A stretch of DNA of 64,000 bases from a virus: IMG/VR virus record IMGVR_UViG_3300042549_005813; one strand, 5' to 3'. Positions 956-11,710 of the stretch are shown one piece after another (position 1 is the first letter of the stretch; the number at the start of each line of letters is the position of its first letter). Made by a program: the position numbers and the translations under genes. The notes beneath the pieces were generated by a model. The model had not been told where the DNA came from, ran no database searches, and worked only from the letters and a program-made list of their open reading frames with translations.

Positions 956-1047
956 AATGAAAAAATTATTTACAAGTATACTTGAGGCCATAGAGGCTAT
1001 CAAACAACACAGGTCGGGACCCGGCCTTAAAGGTAGATAATTACCAC

Positions 1048-1084
1048 AAGGGGTCTTGACAGACCCCTTTTTTTATTGTATAAT
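1048..1084 (+). terminator. Intrinsic terminator whose loop is the -35 of the next promoter
   Basis: AAGGGGTC-TTGACA-GACCCCTT plus T-run; TATAAT at 1079-1084, 17 bp after TTGACA. Confidence 0.8.
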
Positions 1085-1093
1085 TGAGACATT

Positions 1094-1276
1094 ATGAAAA
1101 CTGAAAAACAATACATCAAAAAAGTACGTGTAAAAACCACGTTGGAGAATTACTACGTTTGTTCACCAGAGACTAAAGAGATTGATGGGGTACAATTCGT
1201 TTACGTAATCAAAAACATTGGTATTAGGGAAACGCCTAAATTAATGCGGAAAGAATCATTAGAATATATCAAATAA
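1094..1276 (+). CDS. Hypothetical protein
   Basis: ORF immediately downstream of the promoter. Confidence 0.6.
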   Translation: MKTEKQYIKKVRVKTTLENYYVCSPETKEIDGVQFVYVIKNIGIRETPKLMRKESLEYIK

Positions 1277-1351
1277 GGGCCGATAGCTTAATGGTAAAGC
1301 AGTGAACTCATAATTCATTGAGTCTAGGTTCAATTCCTAGTCGGCCCACCA
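1277..1351 (+). tRNA. tRNA with CAT anticodon, probably Ile2 (lysidine type)
   Basis: Cloverleaf with encoded CCA; loop CTCATAA; C4-G69 and C5-G68 acceptor pairs as in TilS substrates. Confidence 0.85.
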
Positions 1352-1369
1352 TTTTTATTAAGGAGTATC

Positions 1370-1819
1370 ATGTCTATTACAATTAAAAACCTTGAGGCTG
1401 CATTGGCTGGAGAAAGCCAAGCGCACATCAAGTATCGTTACTTTGCAAAGATTGCTATGGAAGAAGGTCATGAGGAAATTGCCAAACATTTTTGGCACAC
1501 CGCTGACCAAGAATTACTCCATGCATGGGGTCACCTTGAGTTGTTGATTGGTAAACCAACTACCAAAGAATGCCTTGAAATGGCCATCGAAGGTGAAACA
1601 TATGAGTTTACTACAATGTATCCTAATATGAAAAAGGATGCAGAGATAGAAGGTAACAAAGAAGCAGAACGTGAAGCTGCACACCAAATTGCAGAAAGTC
1701 ACACACATGCGGAAGAATTCCGTGCAGTTCTTGCTAAGGCAGAGAAGAAATTTGCAGCATTGGCTAAGATTGAGAAACGTCATGCAGCTGCATATCAACA
1801 AGTATTGGAGAAACTATAA
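1370..1819 (+). CDS. Rubrerythrin (ferritin-like di-iron protein)
   Basis: NLEAALAGESQAHIKYRYFA, QELLHA, EGETYE and EKRHA di-iron ExxH motifs. Confidence 0.9.
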   Translation: MSITIKNLEAALAGESQAHIKYRYFAKIAMEEGHEEIAKHFWHTADQELLHAWGHLELLIGKPTTKECLEMAIEGETYEFTTMYPNMKKDAEIEGNKEAEREAAHQIAESHTHAEEFRAVLAKAEKKFAALAKIEKRHAAAYQQVLEKL

Positions 1820-1947
1820 TGGATCATGTATGTGTGGTTTGTGGCCATGTCCACGATGATGAAAAAGAAGGCGCATGGGATACATTACCAGATGATTTCA
1901 CTTGTCCAGAATGTGATTGTGGTAAAGAAGACTACGAGGTCCTGTGA
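1819..1947 (+). CDS. Rubredoxin (42 aa, not in the ORF track)
   Basis: MDHVCVVCGHVHDDEKEGAWDTLPDDFTCPECDCGKEDYEVL: two CxxC knuckles and a W-x-x-LP-x-x-F-x-CP pattern. Confidence 0.9.
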   Translation: MDHVCVVCGHVHDDEKEGAWDTLPDDFTCPECDCGKEDYEVL

Positions 1948-2417
1948 AAGATAAATTTCGTAATGCATATATGAAAGTGGCCGAGACATTTGCAGCATTG
2001 TCCTCGGCTCGTAGACTTCATGTTGGTGCTATTGTAGTAAAGGACGACCGCATCATAAGTATTGGTTATAATGGTATGCCTTCTGGTTGGGATAACAACT
2101 GTGAAGATAAAATCTATTGTGATGATGGTGATTGTTTAGAACAACAGTTACCAAAAGAATCAGATACATGGAAAAAATATAAACTTAAAACCAAACCAGA
2201 GGTGCTTCATGCGGAAACAAATGCAATCGCTAAGTTGGCAAAGTCTACCGAATCTGGTATGGGTGCTACTATGTTTATCACCCACGCTCCATGTTTGGAC
2301 TGTGCCAAACTTATCTACCAAAGTGGTATTAGCAGTGTTCTATATCGGAACTCTTATCGGAGTGATGATGGTATCCAATTCCTACAAAAAGCAGCCGTTT
2401 GGGTGGAAAAAATCTAA
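1944..2417 (+). CDS. cd: dCMP deaminase
   Basis: HAETNAI and PCLDCAK zinc motifs; IGYNG. Confidence 0.92.
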   Translation: MKDKFRNAYMKVAETFAALSSARRLHVGAIVVKDDRIISIGYNGMPSGWDNNCEDKIYCDDGDCLEQQLPKESDTWKKYKLKTKPEVLHAETNAIAKLAKSTESGMGATMFITHAPCLDCAKLIYQSGISSVLYRNSYRSDDGIQFLQKAAVWVEKI

Positions 2418-2461
2418 TACTCCTAAATAACTGAGGGTAATTGTGCCCTTAGGAGACCAGG

Positions 2462-2971
2462 ATGATTATTCGTGTGGTTAACTGTCCAGACAAAGATTTT
2501 AAGCCCTTTGTTGAAAGAGCAGCCCAATTCTTCGCTAAAGAATTGATACCAAATACACGAATAAGAAATAATTGTATAACAGAAATTAAATTTTGTACCA
2601 AAATAACTGAATATGGTTTTGCTAGTATTGAAGATTATAATACAAAAAAACTACCTAGACAATTCCTAATAGAAATTAATCCAAATATTGGATCCAGAAG
2701 AATACTGGAAACTTTGGCACATGAAATGGTTCATGTGAAACAATACATTGATGGTGAAACGAATGATGAGTTGACCCGATGGAGAGGTAAACGGGTTGAT
2801 CCAGACAAAATAGATTATTGGGTTCAGCCATGGGAGATAGATGCTTACGGCCGTGAACCAGGACTACTTACGAAGTTTGCTATATCTGAACACTTGTGGG
2901 AAACGTTCTCCGACTTTGTTGATCCATCCGGTCCAATAAATTATAATCCGATTGCATGGAAAAAAGAATAA
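2462..2971 (+). CDS. Putative zinc metallopeptidase (HExxH)
   Basis: LAHEMVHVKQ and QPWEIDAY motifs; preceded by a late-type TAAATA. Confidence 0.65.
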   Translation: MIIRVVNCPDKDFKPFVERAAQFFAKELIPNTRIRNNCITEIKFCTKITEYGFASIEDYNTKKLPRQFLIEINPNIGSRRILETLAHEMVHVKQYIDGETNDELTRWRGKRVDPDKIDYWVQPWEIDAYGREPGLLTKFAISEHLWETFSDFVDPSGPINYNPIAWKKE

Positions 2972-2975
2972 AAAT

Positions 2976-3509
2976 ATGTCGCATCCAACTCAACAAGAAT
3001 TTGTTAAAAAATTATCAAACGAATTTCCACAAAATTTTAACAACATAAAGATGCTGGAGGTTGGAAGTTTAAACATCAACGGTACAATGAGAACTCATTT
3101 TACAAATTGTGAATATGTTGGTGTTGATGTGGATGCGGGTAAAGATGTTGATTTGGTTTGCGAAGGCCAGCTTGTCGACCATGCAGATGGCACATATGAC
3201 ACCACAGGTTCTTGTAATTGTTTTGAACACAATCCACATTGGATAGAAACATTTCAAAACATGTATCGTATGACCAAAAAAGATGGATTAGTTTTTATCG
3301 TAGTACCAACAACAGGTTATCCTGAACATGGTACATCCAATAAAGCACCAAATGATAGTCCTTTAACCATTGCAAAAGGTTGGGAATATTACAGTAATCT
3401 TACAGAAGAAGATTTTCGTAAAAACTTTGATATGGATAGTATGTTTCATACCTACAAGTTTGAAACAAATAAGACTCCCGAATTATTTTTTTACGGATTT
3501 AAAAAATAA
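2976..3509 (+). CDS. Class I SAM-dependent methyltransferase
   Basis: MLEVGS, YVGVD, GKDVD and CFEH motifs; start adjusted to ATG 2976. Confidence 0.8.
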   Translation: MSHPTQQEFVKKLSNEFPQNFNNIKMLEVGSLNINGTMRTHFTNCEYVGVDVDAGKDVDLVCEGQLVDHADGTYDTTGSCNCFEHNPHWIETFQNMYRMTKKDGLVFIVVPTTGYPEHGTSNKAPNDSPLTIAKGWEYYSNLTEEDFRKNFDMDSMFHTYKFETNKTPELFFYGFKK

Positions 3510-3522
3510 TTTTAAAAACCGC

Positions 3523-3551
3523 TTGCCAAGACATAAAAGTTCCTATATAAT
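3523..3551 (+). promoter_or_regulatory. Sigma70-type promoter of the leader/tRNA operon
   Basis: TTGCCA(3523-3528)-17 bp-TATAAT(3546-3551); predicted +1 at or near the A of ATG 3558. Confidence 0.8.
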
Positions 3552-3557
3552 AACACT

Positions 3558-3668
3558 ATGACAAATTTTAAACACATATCCTTTACGTTACAGCCAGAGT
3601 ATCGCACAATTAATTGTGGTGATAGCTCATGGGCGCCGACTGGGTTTTGTGTAAAGAGAGAGAACTAA
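3558..3668 (+). CDS. Putative attenuator leader peptide (36 aa, contains all 20 amino acids)
   Basis: MTNFKHISFTLQPEYRTINCGDSSWAPTGFCVKREN*; leaderless start; 3642-3652 is complementary to 3696-3706, which overlaps the terminator 5' arm. Confidence 0.75.
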   Translation: MTNFKHISFTLQPEYRTINCGDSSWAPTGFCVKREN

Positions 3669-3699
3669 TACATAAGTTCTAAAAAAAGACTCCAAACAC

Positions 3700-3739
3700 A
3701 AGACCCTAGACCTAAAAAATCTAGGGTTTTTTGTTTGTT
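3700..3739 (+). terminator. Intrinsic terminator (attenuator) ahead of the tRNA array
   Basis: AAGACCCTAGA-loop-TCTAGGGTTTT followed by TTGTTTGTT. Confidence 0.85.
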
Positions 3740-3810
3740 GTTTCAATACAACACAGTGGTTGCCAGGTCATCGAATCTGATATACAATACACACTGTTCT
3801 TTAAAAATTT
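3736..3810 (+). promoter_or_regulatory. Operator-promoter-boxA cassette of tRNA sub-operon 1
   Basis: TGTTG-N8-CAACA (3736-3753); TTGCCA(3760)-17-TACAAT(3783); boxA-like TGTTCTTTAAAAATTT (3795-3810). Confidence 0.7.
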
Positions 3811-3822
3811 GTCGTAGTTTAT

Positions 3823-3896
3823 TGGGGTATAGCATAGTGGCAGTGCTGCGGACTTTGAATCCGTAGGTCCTTGTTCGATTCAAGGTACCCCAGCCA
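3823..3896 (+). tRNA. tRNA-Gln(TTG)
   Basis: Cloverleaf, loop CTTTGAA, CCA. Confidence 0.92.
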
Positions 3897-3969
3897 TATA
3901 AAAGCACATTGAGAGACATAGCCGGCGTAAGACCCGGAAGTATGGTGGTTATCCAGTGTGTTTCTATAT
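3897..3969 (+). ncRNA. Putative structured RNA or processing stalk between tRNAs
   Basis: AAGCACATTG pairs with CAGTGTGTTT, enclosing a CCGG-loop-CCGG hairpin. Confidence 0.4.
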
Positions 3970-4061
3970 GGAAGATGATGCAGCGGGGTTGGTCCTGCGA
4001 CTGGCCTTGAAAACCAGGTTCTCAGAAATGGGATGGGGTTCGACTCCTCCGTCTTCCGCCA
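3970..4061 (+). tRNA. tRNA-Ser(TGA) with an 8/4 acceptor/T-stem fold
   Basis: GGAAGATG/CGTCTTCC 8-bp acceptor, GGGG/CCTC 4-bp T stem, long V arm, G73. Confidence 0.85.
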
Positions 4062-4066
4062 AACAT

Positions 4067-4154
4067 AGAAGGTTGCCCGAGTGGTTAAGGGAGCAGTTTG
4101 CTAAACTGTCGTTGCGAAAGCGGCGCATCGGTTCGAATCCGATACCTTCTGCCA
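4067..4154 (+). tRNA. tRNA-Ser(GCT)
   Basis: Type II cloverleaf, loop TTGCTAA, GCCA end. Confidence 0.92.
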
Positions 4155-4160
4155 AAACAT

Positions 4161-4252
4161 GCCAGCGAGACTTGACAGTCAGAGAGTCCTTATAAGACTT
4201 TTAGCGCCAGATTAGCGTTCTTGAGAGGGTTTGATTCCCTCCGCTGGTACCA
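4161..4252 (+). tRNA. Atypical tRNA with TAT anticodon (Ile) and a long variable arm
   Basis: GCCAGCG/CGCTGGT-ACCA; GAGTC-CTTATAA-GACTT; 24-nt V region; T loop TTTGATT. Confidence 0.7.
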
Positions 4253-4260
4253 AATGAAAG

Positions 4261-4476
4261 ATGATTATGTGGAAAATTAAAATTGAAAATGGAATAATAT
4301 TAAATGCAAGTCCAACATTGGAAGATGCAATGAATTTTGCAAAAGGTTACGGCAAGTTTGTAACCATCACCAATGACGAAATGGAATTTGTAGGTAAATT
4401 CGGTGTTGATACTATCAAGGACGGAAAGTGTCCTGATGGAGTTGATTACACTTGGATGAAACGAAGAAATATGTAG
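4261..4476 (+). CDS. Hypothetical protein inside the tRNA array
   Basis: ORF between tRNAs; its stop codon overlaps the 5' end of tRNA-Cys. Confidence 0.7.
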   Translation: MIMWKIKIENGIILNASPTLEDAMNFAKGYGKFVTITNDEMEFVGKFGVDTIKDGKCPDGVDYTWMKRRNM

Positions 4477-4548
4477 GTGTGACCCGAAAGGCTAGGGAGC
4501 AGATTGCAAATCTGTTACATGCAGGTTCGATTCCTGTCACCTACTCCA
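4473..4548 (+). tRNA. tRNA-Cys(GCA)
   Basis: GTAGGTG/CACCTAC, loop TTGCAAA, U73-CCA. Confidence 0.9.
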
Positions 4549-4552
4549 AACA

Positions 4553-4650
4553 TGTTGTAGAAATACAACAGTACTGGTTGACAATGATTCATGGTTGTGT
4601 TATACTTCATCTATGAATTGAGAAATCAATCAAACGTTCTTTAAAAATTT
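4553..4650 (+). promoter_or_regulatory. Operator-promoter-boxA cassette of tRNA sub-operon 2
   Basis: TGTTG-N8-CAACA (4553-4570); TTGACA(4578)-17-TATACT(4601); CGTTCTTTAAAAATTT (4635-4650). Confidence 0.75.
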
Positions 4651-4662
4651 GTTGTAGTTAAT

Positions 4663-4737
4663 GCTCCGTTCGTCTATCGGTTAGGACGCTGCCCTTTCAA
4701 GGCGGAAAGACCAGTTCGATTCTGGTACGGAGTACCA
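4663..4737 (+). tRNA. tRNA-Glu(TTC)
   Basis: Cloverleaf, loop CTTTCAA, CCA. Confidence 0.92.
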
Positions 4738-4859
4738 TTTGTTTTGTTGACGTAAGCGCTTGAGTAAACGTCAACTCTAACTAACTATGTATATAAACGG
4801 TAATGCTGCAGCTAAATCCGTTGAGCATAGCAAATAGTGCGTCAGCAAAACAAATGGTA
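4733..4859 (+). ncRNA. Putative ncRNA closed by a 22-bp stem
   Basis: 4733-4754 pairs with 4838-4859 (2 G-U pairs); internal hairpins. Confidence 0.5.
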
Positions 4860-4864
4860 GTTAT

Positions 4865-4938
4865 GGGGGTATAACTTAGTGGTAAAGTAGTAGGCTTTTA
4901 ACCTATTAACCAGAGTTCGATTCTCTGTACCCCTACCA
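4865..4938 (+). tRNA. tRNA-Lys(TTT)
   Basis: Cloverleaf, loop CTTTTAA, CCA. Confidence 0.92.
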
Positions 4939-4947
4939 AAAAAATTT

Positions 4948-5032
4948 GGAGACACGGCAAAGTGGGAGAGTTGCGGCAGACTGTAAATCTGTTCCTTCGG
5001 GTGAGTAGGTTCGAATCTTACTGTCTCCACCA
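4948..5032 (+). tRNA. tRNA-Tyr(GTA)
   Basis: Type II cloverleaf, loop CTGTAAA, CCA. Confidence 0.92.
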
Positions 5033-5222
5033 AATCCCGTTACTACTTTTCGTTAAAGTAGCGTTTGATTAGCGATAGAGATCCGGTGGCAGAAAACCGT
5101 TAGCGAGAGAAATCTCAGGCTCTGATAGGCAGTTCCCTCTGCACACAGACATTAGAATAAAAGGGATGGACAGAGTAACTTCTCAATTAAGGGCTTGTGT
5201 GGAAACAAGTAGCTTATCCTAA
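5033..5222 (+). ncRNA. Putative structured ncRNA (~190 nt)
   Basis: Spacer with no ORF of 60 aa or more and several hairpins (CTACTTT/AAAGTAG, CGGT/ACCG, GAGA-GAAA-TCTC, CTTGT/ACAAG). Confidence 0.45.
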
Positions 5223-5225
5223 TTT

Positions 5226-5300
5226 GGTCTTAAAGTGTTCATGGACGCACATCAGCCTGTCACGCTGAAAGAAGGGGATCGTTACCCCTTGGGACCGCCA
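5226..5300 (+). tRNA. tRNA-Asp(GTC)
   Basis: Loop CTGTCAC, G73-CCA, atypical T loop ATCGTTA. Confidence 0.88.
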
Positions 5301-5308
5301 AGTTTTAT

Positions 5309-5383
5309 TCCAGAGTAGCACAGCGGTAGTGCAGTTGACTGTTAATCAATTGGTCGTAGGTTCGATCCCTGCCTCTGGAGCCA
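5309..5383 (+). tRNA. tRNA-Asn(GTT)
   Basis: Cloverleaf, loop CTGTTAA, GCCA. Confidence 0.92.
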
Positions 5384-5384
5384 A

Positions 5385-5598
5385 TACGTTCCGCTTGGTT
5401 AGCGGATACTGTGACCCGCAGGATAAGAAGTGAGGTGACTCTCAAGGGTGGTACCACTCTTACCGAAGTGGCGCTGGCAATGCGAGAACGGTCCTGGTCG
5501 GGAAGCGGGTGGAGGTCGTGCGTGATGAAAGATTAATTGGAGTAAAATCTGACCAAATTTCTGATGCGATATAATTACCGCCGCAGGACGCAGAGCAT
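5385..5598 (+). ncRNA. Putative structured ncRNA (~215 nt)
   Basis: GC-rich spacer with nested stems TCCGCT/AGCGGA, AAGGGTGG/CCACTCTT, GTCCTG/CAGGAC and CGTTC/GAACG. Confidence 0.5.
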
Positions 5599-5606
5599 TT
5601 TATTTC

Positions 5607-5680
5607 GCCCTATTAGTATAATGGCATTACACCTGTTTTGTAATCAGGTTACGGCAGTTCGATTCTGTCATGGGGCACCA
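5607..5680 (+). tRNA. tRNA-Thr(TGT)
   Basis: Cloverleaf, loop TTTGTAA, CCA. Confidence 0.9.
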
Positions 5681-5686
5681 GTTTTT

Positions 5687-5762
5687 CTCTCTGAAGCGTT
5701 ATCAGGTTGCGTACACGGTTTGGGGCCGTGTGGTCAAGGTTCGAATCCTTGCAGGGAGACCA
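5687..5762 (+). tRNA. tRNA-Pro(TGG)
   Basis: Cloverleaf, loop TTTGGGG, CCA. Confidence 0.9.
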
Positions 5763-5770
5763 GTTTTTTT

Positions 5771-5845
5771 GGGGGCAGCAGTGGGCTGCGGCGTTCCCTT
5801 GCAAGGATCGTGACTAGAAGGATTCGATTTCCTCGGCCTCCACCA
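5771..5845 (+). tRNA. tRNA-Ala(TGC), atypical D and T arms
   Basis: GGGGGC/GCCTCC with G3:U70, loop CTTGCAA, ACCA. Confidence 0.75.
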
Positions 5846-5849
5846 ATTA

Positions 5850-5924
5850 GGTTCAGTAGCATAGTGGCAGTGCAGCATCTTCATACGGTGCGTTGTGTGA
5901 GTTCGATTCTCACCTGAACCACCA
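5850..5924 (+). tRNA. tRNA-Met(CAT), probably elongator
   Basis: Paired 1:72, loop TTCATAC, ACCA. Confidence 0.85.
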
Positions 5925-5930
5925 AATTAT

Positions 5931-6005
5931 GGGCGATTAGTAAAATGAATATTACACAAGGCTACGAACCTTGAAGTGGGAGTTTGATTCTCTCATCGCC
6001 CTCCA
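5931..6005 (+). tRNA. tRNA-Arg(ACG)
   Basis: Loop CTACGAA, CCA. Confidence 0.88.
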
Positions 6006-6009
6006 ATAT

Positions 6010-6084
6010 CCTCTTGTAGCTCAATGGTAGAGCATTCGGCTGATAACCGAAAGACCTAAGGTTCGATTCCTTTCGAGAGGACCA
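6010..6084 (+). tRNA. tRNA-Ile(GAT)
   Basis: Loop CTGATAA, ACCA. Confidence 0.92.
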
Positions 6085-6088
6085 ATAT

Positions 6089-6162
6089 ATCTCGCTGGTG
6101 TAATGGCAGCACGATGGTCTCCAAAACCATTAGTCGGGGTTCGAGTCCCTGGCGGGATGCCA
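6089..6162 (+). tRNA. tRNA-Trp(CCA)
   Basis: Loop CTCCAAA, GCCA. Confidence 0.92.
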
Positions 6163-6183
6163 ATTTTAAAAAAGGTGATTAAT

Positions 6184-6669
6184 ATGAAAAATTTCAATAT
6201 AGAAGAAGTCAGACAATACCTTGCAAATCAAGGTCCTGATACCAAGGTTTATCTTGGTGCCGACTCTGAAAGAATCAGGGTAAATGGTGTTTGGTATGCT
6301 GACTATGCTCTAGCAGTTGTAGTTCATATTGATGGCCGACATGGTTGTAAGATTTTCGGATATGTTCACCGTGAATTGGATTACGACCATAAGAAAAGTA
6401 AACCTGCTATGAGGTTGATGACTGAAGTTTATAAAGTTTCAGAATTGTTCCAATCATTAGCAGAAGTGTTGGAAGATTATCATGTTGAAGTTCATCTTGA
6501 TTTGAATAAAGATGATATTCATGGTAGTTCATGTGTTGTTCAGCAAGCGATTGGTTATATTAAAGGTACATGTAACATGACACCAATGGTTAAACCAGAT
6601 GCACCTGCTGCAAGTTTCTGTGCTGACAGATTGAAAAGAATTCTGGCAGAACAGGAAGAAATTCAGTAA
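6184..6669 (+). CDS. RNase H-like YkuK (DUF458) family protein
   Basis: VYLGADS, RLMTEV, EVHLD and VKPDAPAASFCAD motifs; start adjusted to ATG 6184. Confidence 0.8.
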   Translation: MKNFNIEEVRQYLANQGPDTKVYLGADSERIRVNGVWYADYALAVVVHIDGRHGCKIFGYVHRELDYDHKKSKPAMRLMTEVYKVSELFQSLAEVLEDYHVEVHLDLNKDDIHGSSCVVQQAIGYIKGTCNMTPMVKPDAPAASFCADRLKRILAEQEEIQ

Positions 6670-6672
6670 TAT

Positions 6673-6747
6673 GGAGAAATTAGTTTAGTGGTAAAACCAC
6701 GGGTTGTGATTCCGTTATCACCAGTTCGATCCTGGTATTTCTCCCCA
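6673..6747 (+). tRNA. tRNA-His(GTG)
   Basis: G-1:C73, loop TTGTGAT, CCA. Confidence 0.92.
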
Positions 6748-6752
6748 AATAT

Positions 6753-6827
6753 GCCCCGTTAGCTCAGTGGTAGAGCAGTGCTTTTACACGGCGAAGGTCG
6801 GCAGTTCGAAACTGTCACGGGGTACCA
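6753..6827 (+). tRNA. tRNA-Val(TAC)
   Basis: Loop TTTACAC, ACCA. Confidence 0.9.
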
Positions 6828-6831
6828 ACAT

Positions 6832-6907
6832 GCCAATATAGCTCAGGTGGTAGAGCAGTAGACTGAAAATCTATGTGTCAGCGGTTCGACTCCGTTTATT
6901 GGCACCA
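6832..6907 (+). tRNA. tRNA-Phe(GAA)
   Basis: Loop CTGAAAA, ACCA. Confidence 0.92.
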
Positions 6908-6912
6908 ATAAT

Positions 6913-6989
6913 ACCCAAGTGACGGAATAGGTATACGTACTTGTCTCAAAAGCAAGGTGATGTGGGCTCGAATCCCACCTTGGGTACCA
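6913..6989 (+). tRNA. tRNA-Leu(CAA), short variable arm
   Basis: Loop CTCAAAA, Leu-type D arm, 77 nt. Confidence 0.88.
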
Positions 6990-6990
6990 T

Positions 6991-7064
6991 GCTCTTATAG
7001 GTAAATGGCATACCACATCCATGGTAAGGATGTATCCTAAGTTCGATTCTTAGTAGGAGCACCA
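6991..7064 (+). tRNA. tRNA-Thr(GGT)
   Basis: CATCC-ATGGTAA-GGATG, ACCA. Confidence 0.88.
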
Positions 7065-7261
7065 ACTTGTTTTAATGTTGTTAAGATAAATTCTTTTTCT
7101 TGTGTGATATATAATTCATCATCTTCAAAAGTTTTTATCTTAGTATCATATGATGGAACAAATTCAGAATCAATACAGTAGTAACCATTAGGCTCATATG
7201 TTTGATGTGCATATAATCCGTAAAACATTTCTACTGTAGGTCTTTTTGAAGTTGGTATCAT
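7037..7261 (-). CDS. Possible small protein antisense within the tRNA array
   Basis: The AT-rich 210-nt spacer between tRNA-Thr and tRNA-Leu is open on the minus strand (MIPTSKRPTVEMFYGLY...). Confidence 0.4.
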   Translation of the reverse strand: MIPTSKRPTVEMFYGLYAHQTYEPNGYYCIDSEFVPSYDTKIKTFEDDELYITQEKEFILTTLKQVGAPTKNRT

Positions 7262-7274
7262 GTTAGTATTTATT

Positions 7275-7351
7275 GCCCCGGTGACGGAATTGGTATACGT
7301 GTTGGTCTTAGAAGCCAAATTTTAGGAGTTCGACTCTCCTCTGGGGCACCA
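7275..7351 (+). tRNA. tRNA-Leu(TAG), short variable arm
   Basis: Loop CTTAGAA, ACCA, 77 nt. Confidence 0.88.
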
Positions 7352-7357
7352 AACATT

Positions 7358-7432
7358 CCGGCGTTAGTATAATGGATAATACAGCGGTCTTCTACACCGT
7401 GAATGTGGGTTCGATTCCTGCACGCCGGACCA
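7358..7432 (+). tRNA. tRNA-Arg(TCT)
   Basis: Loop CTTCTAC, ACCA. Confidence 0.9.
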
Positions 7433-7450
7433 TTTAATAAGGAGTTTATT

Positions 7451-8032
7451 ATGCCAAGCGTATTCTTAGTAAGTGACACACACTTTGGCCACGCTGGTGT
7501 GTGTAGATTTCTACGTGATGATGGTGTGACGAAGCTTAGGCCATGGGATAATCCTGATGAAATGGATGAAGAAATGGTGAAGCGATGGAACGAAACAGTC
7601 AGACCAAATGATAAAGTATATCATCTTGGTGATGTTGTTATCAACCGTAAAGCAATGAGTACTCTGTATAGACTTAACGGTGACAAGGTTCTAATTCGTG
7701 GTAACCACGATATTTTTCGTGATGAAGAATACAGACAACACTTCCGTGAACTACGTGCTTATCATGTAATGAACGGAATGATTCTGTCTCATATTCCCAT
7801 TCATGAGGAAAGTCTTGGTCGTTTCGGTGTAAACATTCATGGACACCTTCATGCAAATCGGGTAAAGATTGCTAAACATGCAAAAGCTAAGCCTGAAATT
7901 GATACTAGATATCATTGTGTTTGTGTTGAACAAACAGATTTTAGACCGATTCTTTTTGAAGATGTTATCAAAAGAATTAAAGAAGAAGGTGGTGAGGTCG
8001 GTTTCCGTAATGGAAACGGACCTACCATGTGA
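7451..8032 (+). CDS. Calcineurin-like metallophosphoesterase
   Basis: SDTHFGH, HLGD, RGNHD, SH and HGHLH motifs. Confidence 0.9.
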   Translation: MPSVFLVSDTHFGHAGVCRFLRDDGVTKLRPWDNPDEMDEEMVKRWNETVRPNDKVYHLGDVVINRKAMSTLYRLNGDKVLIRGNHDIFRDEEYRQHFRELRAYHVMNGMILSHIPIHEESLGRFGVNIHGHLHANRVKIAKHAKAKPEIDTRYHCVCVEQTDFRPILFEDVIKRIKEEGGEVGFRNGNGPTM

Positions 8033-8033
8033 T

Positions 8034-8117
8034 GCGAGTATGGGGGAATTGGTAGACCCAGCAGACTTAAAATCTGCCGCCTTGTGCGTACCGGTTCGAC
8101 TCCGGTTACTCGTACCA
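8034..8117 (+). tRNA. tRNA-Leu(TAA)
   Basis: Type II cloverleaf, loop CTTAAAA, ACCA. Confidence 0.92.
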
Positions 8118-8131
8118 AATTTGGAGGATTT

Positions 8132-10081
8132 ATGAGAATTTTAGCTATACATAGTGAACATGCAACACACGATTCTTCTTGTTGCATTTATGACGGTAAG
8201 AATATTACTTATTTTTTAGAAGAACGTTATAGTGGTGAAAAACATGATGACCGATTGCAAAACTGTTTTCATAACGTATTGAAAACCAATTTGACTTTTG
8301 ATAAAATTATTGTTGGTGGTTTTCATGCAATCTGCATCCATAACAACCACAATTATGATGAATCTTTGTTCAAGAAAATTACAAAAGTTATGCCAACAAT
8401 GGCAAAAAAAGCATTAGGTACACCAATGTTTTTTACTGGTGTGAATCCAGAAAATTTAGAAAACGAACTAGACGTTCCTATTAAACATAACTTACCAGAA
8501 GAATTAATTCAATTAGAAAATTATAAAAAAATTGAAGAAGGATGGGAAAAAACATCCGAAGATGTTAGATATTTTCTATTAAATTATTATAAAAAATACA
8601 AACAATTTCCTATAATTGAATATGATAGTAATCATCACCTCAATCATGCGGCTTTATCTTTTTATAATAGTGGTTTCGATGAAGCAATAGTATTTGTTGC
8701 CGATGGTGCAGGTGAAATTTCATTTGCAACCGCAGAAACTGGAAAATATTTGACTTATAAAGAATCGGAATCTTTATATGTTGCAAATTATAAAGACCCA
8801 ATTAAACCAATTTACAAAAATTACGGTTCATATTCAGGACATGACTATTCAAAAGAAATAGAACGTTTAAATAAACAATTACCTGATTGTGAAGTGCATT
8901 TCGGTAATTACATGGGTATAGGTTTATTGTATAGTGCAGGTGCGTTACAAATTGGTGAAACAGCTGATGAAGCGGGCAAGGCTATGGGTCTTTCTTCTTA
9001 CGGAACACCAACAGGAAATATCTATACCAAAAATGATTATTTTGTTGACTGTGATAAATTCGTGTGTGAATGCCATGATTTTATACCTTTGTTTGAGCCA
9101 CCAAATGGTTATCCATCCAATTTTAAATACAAAGCTGTTGAAGAAAAAAAAGGTCTTCAACGTGGTGGACCAGAATCATTAATACTGTTGCCTGATTTAC
9201 CAGTACAGAGATTGATATCTAAAACCAATTATAAGCCTTATGCGAATTTAGCTAAAGACTTACAATTACAAACACAAGATGTGGCTGTTAATTTAATTAA
9301 AAAAGCAATAGACAAAACTGGATTAAAGAAAGTTTGTATTTGCGGTGGTTATGGAATGAACATTTTAGCTAATTCATATTACACGGAAAAGTTTCCGGAT
9401 GTTGAATTCTACTTTGAACCATTATCTATTGATAGTGGCCTTTCCATTGGCATAGCAATGCGTCATTATCGTAAAGAAACTGGTGACACAAAGATTCGTC
9501 CACAGAAAAGTATTTCATTTCATGGATTTAAACATGATGTTACATCCTATAAAGGTGTTGATGCATCAGTGAATGATATTGCAAAATTACTTTACGATAA
9601 TAAATCTGTTGCAGTATATACTGGTCTGGCTGAAGCTGGCCAACGTGCATTAGGCAACCGTTCAATTTTGTTTAATGCTCTAAATGCTGATGCGAAGGAC
9701 ATTGTTAATAAAATTAAACGTAGAGAATGGTACAGACCATTTGCTGTTGTTGTACTAGAAGAAGATGCTGAGTTATATTTCGATATGGGTAGAACCAAAA
9801 AGAATTTGTTTATGACACAATCATTTGATGTTAAAACCGATTTAATTCCTGGTGTCACTCATGTAGATAACACATGTAGAGTACAGACCGTATCCGAAGG
9901 ATACTTGTATGACCTTTTGGTTGAATTTAAAAAACTTTCGGGTCATGGGATTCTTTTAAATACCAGTTTTAACCTTGCCGGCAAACCTTTGGTAGAAACA
10001 CCAAAGCAAGCCATAGAGACTTTAAATACCTCAGTATTAGATTATCTTTGGTTTGAGGAAACAGGACAATTAATTACCTAA
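8132..10081 (+). CDS. Carbamoyltransferase (NodU/CmcH/TobZ family)
   Basis: HDSS, EERYS, HHLNHA, ADGAGE, GKAMGLSSYG, RALGNRS, KRREWYRPFA, HVDNTCRVQT and LNTSFN motifs; SD GGAGG before ATG 8132. Confidence 0.92.
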   Translation: MRILAIHSEHATHDSSCCIYDGKNITYFLEERYSGEKHDDRLQNCFHNVLKTNLTFDKIIVGGFHAICIHNNHNYDESLFKKITKVMPTMAKKALGTPMFFTGVNPENLENELDVPIKHNLPEELIQLENYKKIEEGWEKTSEDVRYFLLNYYKKYKQFPIIEYDSNHHLNHAALSFYNSGFDEAIVFVADGAGEISFATAETGKYLTYKESESLYVANYKDPIKPIYKNYGSYSGHDYSKEIERLNKQLPDCEVHFGNYMGIGLLYSAGALQIGETADEAGKAMGLSSYGTPTGNIYTKNDYFVDCDKFVCECHDFIPLFEPPNGYPSNFKYKAVEEKKGLQRGGPESLILLPDLPVQRLISKTNYKPYANLAKDLQLQTQDVAVNLIKKAIDKTGLKKVCICGGYGMNILANSYYTEKFPDVEFYFEPLSIDSGLSIGIAMRHYRKETGDTKIRPQKSISFHGFKHDVTSYKGVDASVNDIAKLLYDNKSVAVYTGLAEAGQRALGNRSILFNALNADAKDIVNKIKRREWYRPFAVVVLEEDAELYFDMGRTKKNLFMTQSFDVKTDLIPGVTHVDNTCRVQTVSEGYLYDLLVEFKKLSGHGILLNTSFNLAGKPLVETPKQAIETLNTSVLDYLWFEETGQLIT

Positions 10082-10090
10082 AAAATATGC

Positions 10091-10119
10091 TTGACAAGAC
10101 AATGTAAAGCCTATATAAT
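10091..10119 (+). promoter_or_regulatory. Sigma70-type promoter for the Gly tRNAs and groES
   Basis: TTGACA-17 bp-TATAAT. Confidence 0.8.
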
Positions 10120-10130
10120 ACACACATGAT

Positions 10131-10205
10131 GCGGGTATGGTGCTAGTGGTAACACAAGACCTTGCCAAGGTTTAGTTGAGGGTTCGATTCCCTCTACCCG
10201 CTCCA
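10131..10205 (+). tRNA. tRNA-Gly(GCC)
   Basis: Loop TTGCCAA, U73-CCA. Confidence 0.92.
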
Positions 10206-10215
10206 GTATAGAATT

Positions 10216-10289
10216 GCAGGGTTAGTTTAATGGTAAAACTCCATCCTTCCAAGTTGGTGTCGTGGGTTCGATTCCCACACTCTGCTCCA
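10216..10289 (+). tRNA. tRNA-Gly(TCC)
   Basis: Loop CTTCCAA, U73-CCA. Confidence 0.9.
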
Positions 10290-10295
10290 TTTAAT

Positions 10296-10362
10296 GCGGT
10301 TTGTAATAGTACGATATAAGGTACCCCCTTATGTTAACTGAGCAAAGCAGTAGACCGCTCCA
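10296..10362 (+). ncRNA. Degenerate tRNA-Gly-like RNA lacking a D arm (67 nt)
   Basis: GCGGTTT/AGACCGC-T-CCA acceptor; ATAAG-GTACCCC-CTTAT arm (ACC at the anticodon position); ACTG/CAGT T-like stem without TTC. Confidence 0.6.
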
Positions 10363-10375
10363 TTTTGAGGACACT

Positions 10376-10621
10376 ATGAATATTAAACCCTTGCATGATA
10401 AAGTATTGATTGAACGTATTGAGAATGTCAAAGAGACCGCTTCAGGCATCATCCTAAAACATTCCGAAGATCCAGATAAAGCAAGAGTACTTGCAGTTGG
10501 TCCGGATGTTACAGAAGTCCAGGTCGGTGATGTGGTTCAACCAGACTGGGGCAAGGCCGCAGCAGTGCAAGATTATTTCGTGGTGAAGATTGAAGACATA
10601 GCTTACATCTACGGAGAGTAA
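10376..10621 (+). CDS. groES: Co-chaperonin GroES-like protein
   Basis: MNIKPLHDKVLIER, TASGIIL, VLAVGP and VQVGDVV motifs. Confidence 0.88.
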   Translation: MNIKPLHDKVLIERIENVKETASGIILKHSEDPDKARVLAVGPDVTEVQVGDVVQPDWGKAAAVQDYFVVKIEDIAYIYGE

Positions 10622-10623
10622 AC

Positions 10624-10860
10624 ATGTCTGCTGGTGGTAAAGGTTCTAGTCCAAGGCCGTTTAGTGTTTCACAGGAAACATTTGGTAATAACTACGACAA
10701 TATTTTTAGAAAAAAATCACCAAAAGAATTAGAAGAAGATAAAATCGAACAAGAAGAATTTGATAGAATCTTAGAGGAAAATCTAGAACGTCAAAGACGG
10801 GAAAAGTCTTTAGATGCCATGGTGGCAGAAAATCAAAGATTAGGTTTATACGACAACTAA
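10624..10860 (+). CDS. Hypothetical protein
   Basis: SD plus ORF starting MSAGGKGSSPRP. Confidence 0.65.
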   Translation: MSAGGKGSSPRPFSVSQETFGNNYDNIFRKKSPKELEEDKIEQEEFDRILEENLERQRREKSLDAMVAENQRLGLYDN

Positions 10861-10863
10861 TAT

Positions 10864-10936
10864 AGCGGGTTGGTGAAATGGTATCACAGTGGGCTCATAA
10901 TCCTCAGTTCCGGTTCGACTCCGTGACCCGCAACCA
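10864..10936 (+). tRNA. Initiator tRNA-fMet(CAT)
   Basis: A1:A72 mismatch, GGG in the anticodon stem, loop CTCATAA. Confidence 0.85.
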
Positions 10937-11710
10937 TTAATCCTTATACACTTCATATATAAATTCCGCTTCAGGAATTCTTGTCTTTGTATTCTTACTA
11001 CCCAATACAACAACCACTCTATCACCTTCACTTGTGTCTAATAGAATCGTGATACATCCACCAGATTCATTTATAAAACCAGTCTTACTGACTATTATAT
11101 TTTGATAGTGTCCTATCATTGGGTTTGTGTTACGAAAAACAAACCATTTCTTCTTTACTTTTATTTTTATTTCTAACTTGCGGCTAGCATAAACTATATT
11201 GCTGTATTCTGCCGCAGCTTTTGTCAACGTCACCAATTCTCTTGCGGTGCTAACATTTCTTTCGTCTAATCCTGTTGGTTCATAAACAATGGATTTTTCC
11301 ATTTGTAATTTTTTCAACTTATCATTCATAGCCTTGACACAGGCCGGCATACCACCAGGATAATGTTCACATAGTGTATATGCGGCTCTATTACTACTGT
11401 GTATCATGGTCATAGAAACCAAATTTGCTCGACTGACAACTTGGTTTTTTACTGGCAACCTGTCTCGTATTTTTGTAGTCATTGTCAACATCTGGCTCAT
11501 GTTAGGATTCGTATCCATCACAACCATGACAGTTAACAATTTTGTTATACTGGCAATAGGCCTAATCTTATCATAATCTTTACCACCTAATATAGTGCCA
11601 TTTAAATCCGACACAATCCAGGATTTGGCTGTGAAGAATTCTGCTTTGACTGGTGATTGACCAAGAAGTATGGTGAAAAATAACAGAGTAATAAAAATTC
11701 TATATAACAA
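10937..11710 (-). CDS. D-alanyl-D-alanine endo/carboxypeptidase (peptidase S11, PBP7/PbpG-like)
   Basis: Signal peptide; SxxK (SITK), SxN (SSN) and KTG motifs. Confidence 0.9.
   Translation of the reverse strand: MLYRIFITLLFFTILLGQSPVKAEFFTAKSWIVSDLNGTILGGKDYDKIRPIASITKLLTVMVVMDTNPNMSQMLTMTTKIRDRLPVKNQVVSRANLVSMTMIHSSNRAAYTLCEHYPGGMPACVKAMNDKLKKLQMEKSIVYEPTGLDERNVSTARELVTLTKAAAEYSNIVYASRKLEIKIKVKKKWFVFRNTNPMIGHYQNIIVSKTGFINESGGCITILLDTSEGDRVVVVLGSKNTKTRIPEAEFIYEVYKD

Follow-up and report, generated by a model that had tools for sequence, protein, structure and literature searches.

The enterobacterial leaders trpL, hisL, leuL, and pheL combine a short leader open reading frame (ORF) with three alternative RNA helices, 1:2, 2:3, and 3:4, of which 3:4 is a terminator; a ribosome that stalls early in the ORF frees segment 2. 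Here, we describe a region with the same parts in an uncultured freshwater phage, positions 3523-3743 of a viral DNA of 64,000 nucleotides (nt) (IMG/VR record IMGVR_UViG_3300042549_005813; the whole of this stretch is called the window hereafter). We consider it likely that this region is a ribosome-mediated attenuator of the trp/his type that heads a phage transfer RNA (tRNA) array. The enterobacterial leaders control biosynthetic enzymes, whereas the phage module precedes tRNA genes. Unlike them, the phage leader has no run of regulatory codons and encodes nearly every amino acid once or a few times, and in the clade to which the window belongs the RNA probably begins directly with the leader ORF. 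The clustering of regulatory codons by which attenuators are classically recognized is thus absent from the window leader, in which all 20 amino acids are distributed among the 36 codons.

Other described systems resemble the phage module in part. According to a preprint (bioRxiv 10.1101/834739), leaderless polycysteine short ORFs of mycobacteria respond to cysteine and control cysteine-related operons; there, as proposed here, translation of a leaderless 5' short ORF controls downstream genes. Those ORFs differ from the phage leader in their runs of Cys codons, and this comparison is one of outline. In multivalent attenuation (ilvGMEDA and ilvBN for Leu, Val, and Ile; thr for Thr and Ile), one leader senses more than one aminoacyl-tRNA, as the phage leader would; these leaders cover two or three related amino acids with clustered repeats, whereas the phage leader would cover ~16-19, mostly once each. 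T-box riboswitches also couple transcription antitermination to the state of tRNA, but they bind one uncharged tRNA directly, by means of a specifier loop and a T-box motif, and need no ORF.

Our literature search found no paper on control of this kind over tRNA genes, and to our knowledge tRNA genes are not known to be under leader-peptide attenuation. If our reading is correct, a compact part of ~190 nt would be the first case of classical attenuation regulating tRNA supply, and its leader peptide would be the first built to sample the majority of the amino acids, not just one to three. The module bears on why phages carry large tRNA arrays and on how they control them.

Results

A conserved leader reading frame ahead of phage tRNA genes

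In the window, a near-consensus promoter (P1) precedes a 36-codon leader ORF, which is followed by an intrinsic terminator and a tRNA array (Table 1). An initial annotation, made from the letters of the window alone, had pointed to this promoter and to a leader peptide that contains all 20 amino acids, 19 of them within the first 26 codons; both statements proved correct.

Relatives of the module were collected along four routes: through the neighboring methyltransferase gene (19 loci); by an exhaustive hmmsearch profile search, which returned seven unnamed metagenome homologs of 31-79 residues and one unrelated repetitive protein; from the contigs that encode these seven homologs; and with DNA patterns placed on three conserved segments and run over viral and metagenome contigs. 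Together, these routes gave 87 distinct DNA modules encoding 67 distinct peptides of 25-48 residues, and every relative comes from a freshwater or other environmental metagenome. The module heads a tRNA array or sits inside one in every locus that was scanned for tRNAs or folded. Neither blastn nor tblastn found a cultured relative among 50,697 phage records, and the nearest virus record in the collection searched (G001) does not have the region. In L016-L018, whose methyltransferase is 62% identical to that of the window, there is no leader homolog beside the methyltransferase gene. That gene itself lies inside a tRNA array in these loci, with tRNAs flanking it on both sides.

The leader ORF has no Pfam match, matches PHROGs only at E values of 0.05-0.17, and has no usable match in the ESM-Atlas; a known small-protein family was rejected on these grounds. 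A known RNA leader family (the Trp, His, Leu, or Thr leaders) and the T-box (RF00230) were likewise rejected for want of a cmscan match to Rfam, which returned only tRNAs and chance-level matches (E up to 1 within 3400-4300; E up to 0.001 within 1000-11500).

The DNA search patterns are blind to reading frame, and the gaps between the conserved segments vary in length (15, 18, 21, 24, or 27 and 10, 13, 16, or 19 nt). The frame is kept in 87 of 87 modules, across at least seven indel lengths: every internal length change is a multiple of three, and both a 21-nt insert at the N terminus and 9-nt internal inserts stay in frame. All 84 untruncated distinct modules have a start codon and are free of internal stops. 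The ratio of nonsynonymous to synonymous changes (pN/pS) is 0.63 in the leader frame versus 1.14 and 1.44 in the other two frames; the changes in the leader frame are distributed 40/41/51 over the three codon positions, and the same alignment columns use synonymous codons (TTA, TTG, and CTG for Leu; AGC and TCG for Ser). The conserved frame, start, and stop point to translation of the leader. An accidental ORF was rejected on this conservation, though the single window alone would not rule chance out.

P1 is kept in the relatives of alignment A1 and in further clades. Its transcription start is predicted at A3558, which is the A of the leader ATG and the seventh base past the -10 hexamer. The ATG lies 6-8 nt past the -10 hexamer in the window clade and in four others, an arrangement that would make a leaderless mRNA, as the initial annotation had it. 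Other clades have a GTG or ATG start ~33 nt downstream, behind a 33-nt 5' untranslated region (UTR) with a purine-rich stretch before the start, and in one deep clade the promoter lies ~90 nt upstream of the start, which leaves a 5' UTR of roughly 85 nt. The leaderless start therefore applies to some clades only, and, because the start context varies by clade, it is not a defining feature of the module.

Alternative helices connect the leader to the terminator

Near the end of the ORF, the segment R2 can pair with R3 over 11 base pairs (bp), one of them G-U (RNAduplex, -18.1 kcal/mol over 13 bp). This pairing had been proposed to overlap 7 nt of the 5' arm of the terminator, and it does: R2:R3 and the terminator stem share positions 3700-3706, so the two helices are mutually exclusive. 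Over 28 diverse modules, the R2:R3 positions are paired in 95.7% of cells, versus 26-62% in slid controls. Two pairs covary, with U-A replaced by G-C in eight sequences and G-C by A-U in one. The R2 and R3 of one module pair 1.9 kcal/mol better with each other than with permuted partners (mean of -16.4 versus -14.5 kcal/mol; P < 5e-5); the duplexes of individual modules range from -13 to -24 kcal/mol, and an R3 that had been mislocated in L265 gave -4.6 kcal/mol. RNAalifold, run unguided, returned R2:R3 as the main long-range pairing of the consensus. The bases just 5' of R2 track the sequence of the terminator stem in L020, L021, L160, and L170. The codons of R2 are invariant, even though other parts of the ORF encode the same amino acids with synonymous codons.

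The terminator has an energy of -12.8 kcal/mol for its core and of -20.5 kcal/mol with the extension by an A-tract and the U-tract, and its stem can be extended to 3700-3730. It also covaries among relatives, with four pairs changed on both sides, so that compensatory changes are found in both of the helices that the initial annotation had named.

A further helix, absent from that annotation, joins R1 to R2. R1:R2 is paired in 90.8% of cells across 28 diverse modules versus 7-62% in slid controls. It is seen in the minimum free energy (MFE) fold of the window, which has a z-score of -4.75, and most folds made without constraints have it as the closing helix of the 5' domain. Its duplex is weak in the window (-9.4 kcal/mol) and stronger in relatives. 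As judged from these pairings, R1:R2, the putative antiterminator R2:R3, and the terminator R3:R4 make up the four-segment design of trp/his attenuators. The trp/his-type geometry originally suggested for the window is thus upheld by a conserved frame and by a covarying antiterminator that excludes the terminator, and R1:R2 is added to it.

Conservation of the leader is in large part conservation of nucleotides. The best-kept residues are fixed as nucleotides, synonymous sites included, in TAT-CGC-ACA, TCA-TGG, and, at the end of the ORF, TGT-GTA; in the conserved segments, Arg is always CGC and Thr is always ACA. The three alternative helices account for this nucleotide-level conservation. 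The base of the central hairpin stem is also nearly invariant as nucleotides, third codon positions included, and an in-frame 9-nt insert lengthens this hairpin in L020 and L021; it may serve in pausing or in organizing the fold. The 3' strand of the spacer hairpin is kept in the long-form clades.

Table 1. Coordinates of the features of the attenuator region and of its immediate surroundings in the window
Feature	Position	Strand	Remarks
Methyltransferase-like gene	ends 3509		upstream of P1
Promoter P1, TTGCCA-17-TATAAT	3523..3551	+	11/12 consensus matches
Leader ORF, 36 codons + TAA (3666-3668)	3558..3668	+	all 20 amino acids, rare-codon biased
R1, anti-antiterminator 5' strand, codons 5-9	3572..3582	+	predicted partner: R2 when no ribosome is present
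Central hairpin within the ORF, codons 14-24	3597..3628	+	MFE fold
R2, codons 29-32	3642..3652	+	predicted partner: R1 or R3 (antiterminator strand)
Small spacer hairpin across the stop codon, between R2 and R3	3661..3680	+	MFE fold
R3, A-rich flank and first bases of the terminator 5' arm	3696..3706	+	predicted partner: R2 or R4
Intrinsic terminator	3700..3743	+	stem 3703-3710/3720-3727, loop 3711-3719, then U-rich tract
Promoter P2, TTGCCA-17-TACAAT	3760..3788	+	downstream of the terminator; 10/12 consensus matches
Conserved leader between P2 and the first tRNA, putative boxA-like	3796..3815	+	nearly invariant in A1
tRNA-Gln(UUG), first gene of the array	3823..3896	+	ARAGORN and Rfam

Predicted effect of ribosome position

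The portion of the RNA left free when termination is decided was folded with a ribosome mask of 28 nt, in an equilibrium calculation and not a kinetic one. In the window, the antiterminator dominates when the A site is at codons 2 to ~18-24, and the terminator dominates when the A site is anywhere from codon 26 to the stop. The same succession, that is, terminator without a ribosome, antiterminator with an early ribosome, and terminator with a late one, was obtained for 10 of 18 diverse relatives.

Position relative to tRNA genes and to a second promoter

Spacing is conserved: in relatives, the terminator ends 57-67 nt past the stop codon. In several of them, a tRNA begins 2-15 nt past the terminator with no promoter in between (L058 and L064; L039, L133, and L124; L023 and L079); in L023 and L079 this tRNA is tRNA-Ser(UGA)-like, was missed by ARAGORN, and was identified by eye. 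In L058, no promoter besides P1 was found ahead of a run of six contiguous tRNAs, and expression of these tRNAs would for that reason need read-through of the terminator. The second promoter that had been noted after the terminator of the window (P2) was confirmed; it is kept in A1 and absent in several diverged clades. Because P2 would supply the array independently, the attenuator would only add to expression of the array in the window clade.

P2 and the boxA-like 20-mer behind it form a module of their own (3744-3815), almost invariant among relatives whose leader ORFs differ by 20%. This module recurs deeper inside the arrays of relatives (e.g., L001 5684-5710).

Amino acid coverage of the leader peptides

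Within the window, complete coverage by itself is not remarkable. The leader ORF is the only one with all 20 amino acids among the 283 ORFs of 30-45 residues, and the probability that 36 residues include all 20 is 0.0016 given the protein composition of the phage and 0.013 if usage is uniform. When the window is shuffled with a second-order Markov model, a mean of 3.1 such ORFs results, with at least one in 94% of shuffles; because shuffled windows yield ~3 each, the lone complete ORF of the window is not beyond chance, and the observation rises above chance because it is conserved in relatives. The high codon diversity stressed by the initial annotation stands as a count (30 distinct codons out of 36) and fails as a signal, being what is expected for the given peptide (P = 0.16). 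Third-position GC content (GC3) is 0.42 in the leader versus 0.30 in the genes, and 14% of gene windows are equally high. Codon adaptation, which falls in the bottom 2% of gene windows, is the sole feature of codon usage that stands out.

All 20 amino acids are present in 48 of the 67 distinct peptides, many of which have only 31 residues, and such complete peptides occur in several deep clades. We compared this coverage with two null models, both of which preserve the composition of each alignment column. Column permutation, with representatives chosen at <=60-70% identity, gave an expectation of 1.2-1.9 complete peptides versus 4.6-7.6 observed (P ~1e-3). The other model was a simulation along trees built from these short sequences, with the root forced to 20/20, column-specific states, and rates derived by parsimony; 14 +/- 9 of 63 tips were expected to be complete, whereas 48 actually were (DNA tree, P < 0.0025; peptide tree, P = 0.003).

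Individual replacements are consistent with maintenance of coverage. The single Gln codon has moved at least three times, by loss at one position and gain at another: Q12H occurs with P13Q or with H6Q, and in the deep clade Gln is exchanged among positions 10, 12, and 13. We rejected an origin of the amino acid swaps (Q/E and H/Q) as a by-product of RNA covariation, since no pairing is predicted between the nucleotides concerned.

Proposed mechanism

The comparison of relatives gives a conserved frame, three alternative helices, a place before tRNA genes, and coverage beyond that of the null models; from these features we infer translation itself, a transcription start, a termination efficiency, and a response to tRNA supply. 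We suggest that the RNA made from P1 would open with the 36-codon leader ORF at its first codons. With no ribosome on the leader, or with a ribosome at the end of the ORF, R2 would be held by R1 or covered. R3 would then complete the terminator, and transcription would halt at ~3735-3743. A ribosome delayed at roughly codons 2-18 (up to ~24) would instead block R1 and leave R2 free to pair with R3, and RNA polymerase would continue into the tRNA genes. Because each amino acid is represented by one or a few, mostly rare, codons, the transit time of the leader would sum the decoding times of most tRNAs. Through such a switch, slow decoding would increase tRNA transcription and an ample supply of tRNAs would reduce it; that is, slowly decoding ribosomes probably cause the phage to make more tRNA. 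In the window clade, P2 would provide an attenuator-independent supply, and the switch would add to the output of P2.

On balance, we lean towards an attenuator of tRNA transcription whose broad composition is functional and reports overall decoding speed, with less assurance than we attach to attenuation itself. More tentative is the full form of this proposal, a translational speedometer in which selection would keep about one, usually rare, codon per amino acid in an ORF of 31-48 codons; we regard it as plausible without preferring it. If true, the speedometer would place the tRNA output of the phage under homeostatic feedback, with mismatched codon usage, the loss of host tRNAs, or tRNA-cleaving defenses as triggers. 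The tRNA output of the phage would then follow decoding stress, including that caused by tRNA-targeting defense systems. Any tie to particular anticodon nucleases (PrrC and PARIS) is pure conjecture.

Weighing of alternative explanations

Several observations weigh against this reading, either on the side of the switch or on that of its breadth. P2 bypasses the attenuator in the window clade, where control would be only partial. In L133 (11366-11479, minus strand), a sigma-70-like promoter (TTGACA-17-TAGAAT) follows the first tRNA, a tRNA-Pro, which is the one tRNA that the attenuator would strictly gate there. The folding evidence is of equilibrium only. Read-through after an early stall, as initially predicted, agrees with mask folding in the window and in the 10 relatives mentioned above; in 5 of the 18 (L022, L024, L115, L126, and L039), the terminator is favored at almost every position of the ribosome. 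For the window without a ribosome, the probability of the terminator is 0.29 or 0.87 depending on the length of free RNA, and this state is ambiguous because R1:R2 is weak there. The start context differs among clades, and the leader ORF of the window has no Shine-Dalgarno sequence before it, while about half of the genes of the phage have one. The missing Shine-Dalgarno sequence would also suit a non-coding structured RNA (a small RNA or a protein-binding leader) with an accidental ORF, as would the strong fold of the window, the conservation of core segments as nucleotides, and the ORFs with complete coverage expected by chance in shuffled windows. We nevertheless hold this explanation to be very improbable: the frame survives many indels in all of the modules, start and stop are always present, length changes at the N terminus are in frame, the other two frames have pN/pS above 1, and no Rfam family matches. 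Somewhat less improbable, though still doubtful, is a stand-alone early gene for a small functional peptide (31-48 residues with two conserved Cys), with a promoter and a terminator of its own, in which R2:R3 and R1:R2 would affect mRNA stability or translation only. The promoter and the terminator are indeed strong, the frame is conserved with pN/pS below 1, most members share the motifs and the two Cys, and P2 serves the tRNAs in the window clade. Yet the best-kept residues of this supposed peptide are fixed down to their synonymous sites (Arg CGC and Thr ACA), while the rest of the ORF is replaced freely, as its pN/pS and the near-even changes per codon position indicate. Several clades have lost the first Cys, no protein family matches, the module is always linked to tRNA arrays, and tRNAs come directly after the terminator without a promoter in several clades. 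A functional peptide would also leave the maintenance of complete coverage unexplained.

A ribosome-dependent attenuator could also exist with an all-amino-acid make-up that has no function, reporting only general translation status or transcription-translation coupling; the variety of residues would then follow from the constraints of RNA structure on a short ORF. Classical attenuators use runs of regulatory codons, and single codons give a weak signal, which makes them poor sensors. Segments constrained as nucleotides (the start codon, TAT-CGC-ACA, GAT, TCA-TGG, and the codons of R2) supply about 11 of the 20 amino acids, and 19 of the 67 peptides are incomplete, nine lacking one amino acid, seven lacking two, and three lacking three. 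The excess of coverage is weak inside the deep 'SDNGSW' clade alone and is sensitive to assumed rates, with P rising to 0.02-0.07 when the simulated rates are halved or cut to one third, values below the parsimony minimum. On the other side, coverage exceeds both null models even though these already keep the composition of each column, the single Gln has repeatedly changed place between sites that are not predicted to pair in the RNA, and complete peptides of 31 residues recur in several deep clades. We therefore consider incidental composition unlikely, if less so than a functional peptide. The broad sensor itself has limits. The only codons for Val, and in some relatives also for Cys or Gly, are located in R2 or beyond it, outside the sensing zone; because a stall there would favor termination, the sensor would span ~16-19 amino acids and not the full 20 first envisaged. 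As for a correspondence between the leader and the local tRNA set, the window leader has an Ala codon although the phage has no tRNA-Ala, and in L058 the leader lacks D, I, and K while the array, as sequenced, lacks K, I, Y, H, V, and A and has D, so that missing amino acids match missing tRNAs only partly.

The tRNA array and neighboring genes

The array of the window (3823-10936) was initially described as a cluster of more than 20 tRNA genes; it comprises 27 tRNAs called by ARAGORN and one tRNA-Ser(UGA)-like gene. The latter (3970-4057) has a long variable arm, was missed by ARAGORN, and appears in Rfam as tRNA-Sec at 35 bits, under the gathering score; at the homologous place in relatives, ARAGORN calls tRNA-Ser(tga) (e.g., L005 4831-4920). 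At 4161-4252, ARAGORN calls a 92-nt tRNA-Ile with anticodon UAU, for which Rfam has no tRNA match at E <= 0.001; the same 92-nt call is made in L005, L013, L009, L027, and L017. No tRNA-Ala is present anywhere in the 64-kb window. Between tRNA-Pro and tRNA-Met, the window has an 87-nt gap without a tRNA (5763-5849), where L005 and L013 have tRNA-Ala(UGC).

The window encodes a family B DNA polymerase, a DnaB-like helicase, a ribonucleotide reductase, and a deoxycytidine monophosphate (dCMP) deaminase, and one relative has clamp-loader and RegA genes; on the strength of these genes, we take the phage to be T4-like. A gene for a 169-residue HExxH protein (2462-2971), with a weak match to Pfam Peptidase_M91 (E 0.009), sits between the dCMP deaminase and methyltransferase-like genes. 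Within the tRNA array, between tRNA-Leu(UAA) and tRNA-Gly, lies a gene for a 649-residue carbamoyltransferase (8132-10078; Pfam Carbam_trans_N and Carbam_trans_C).

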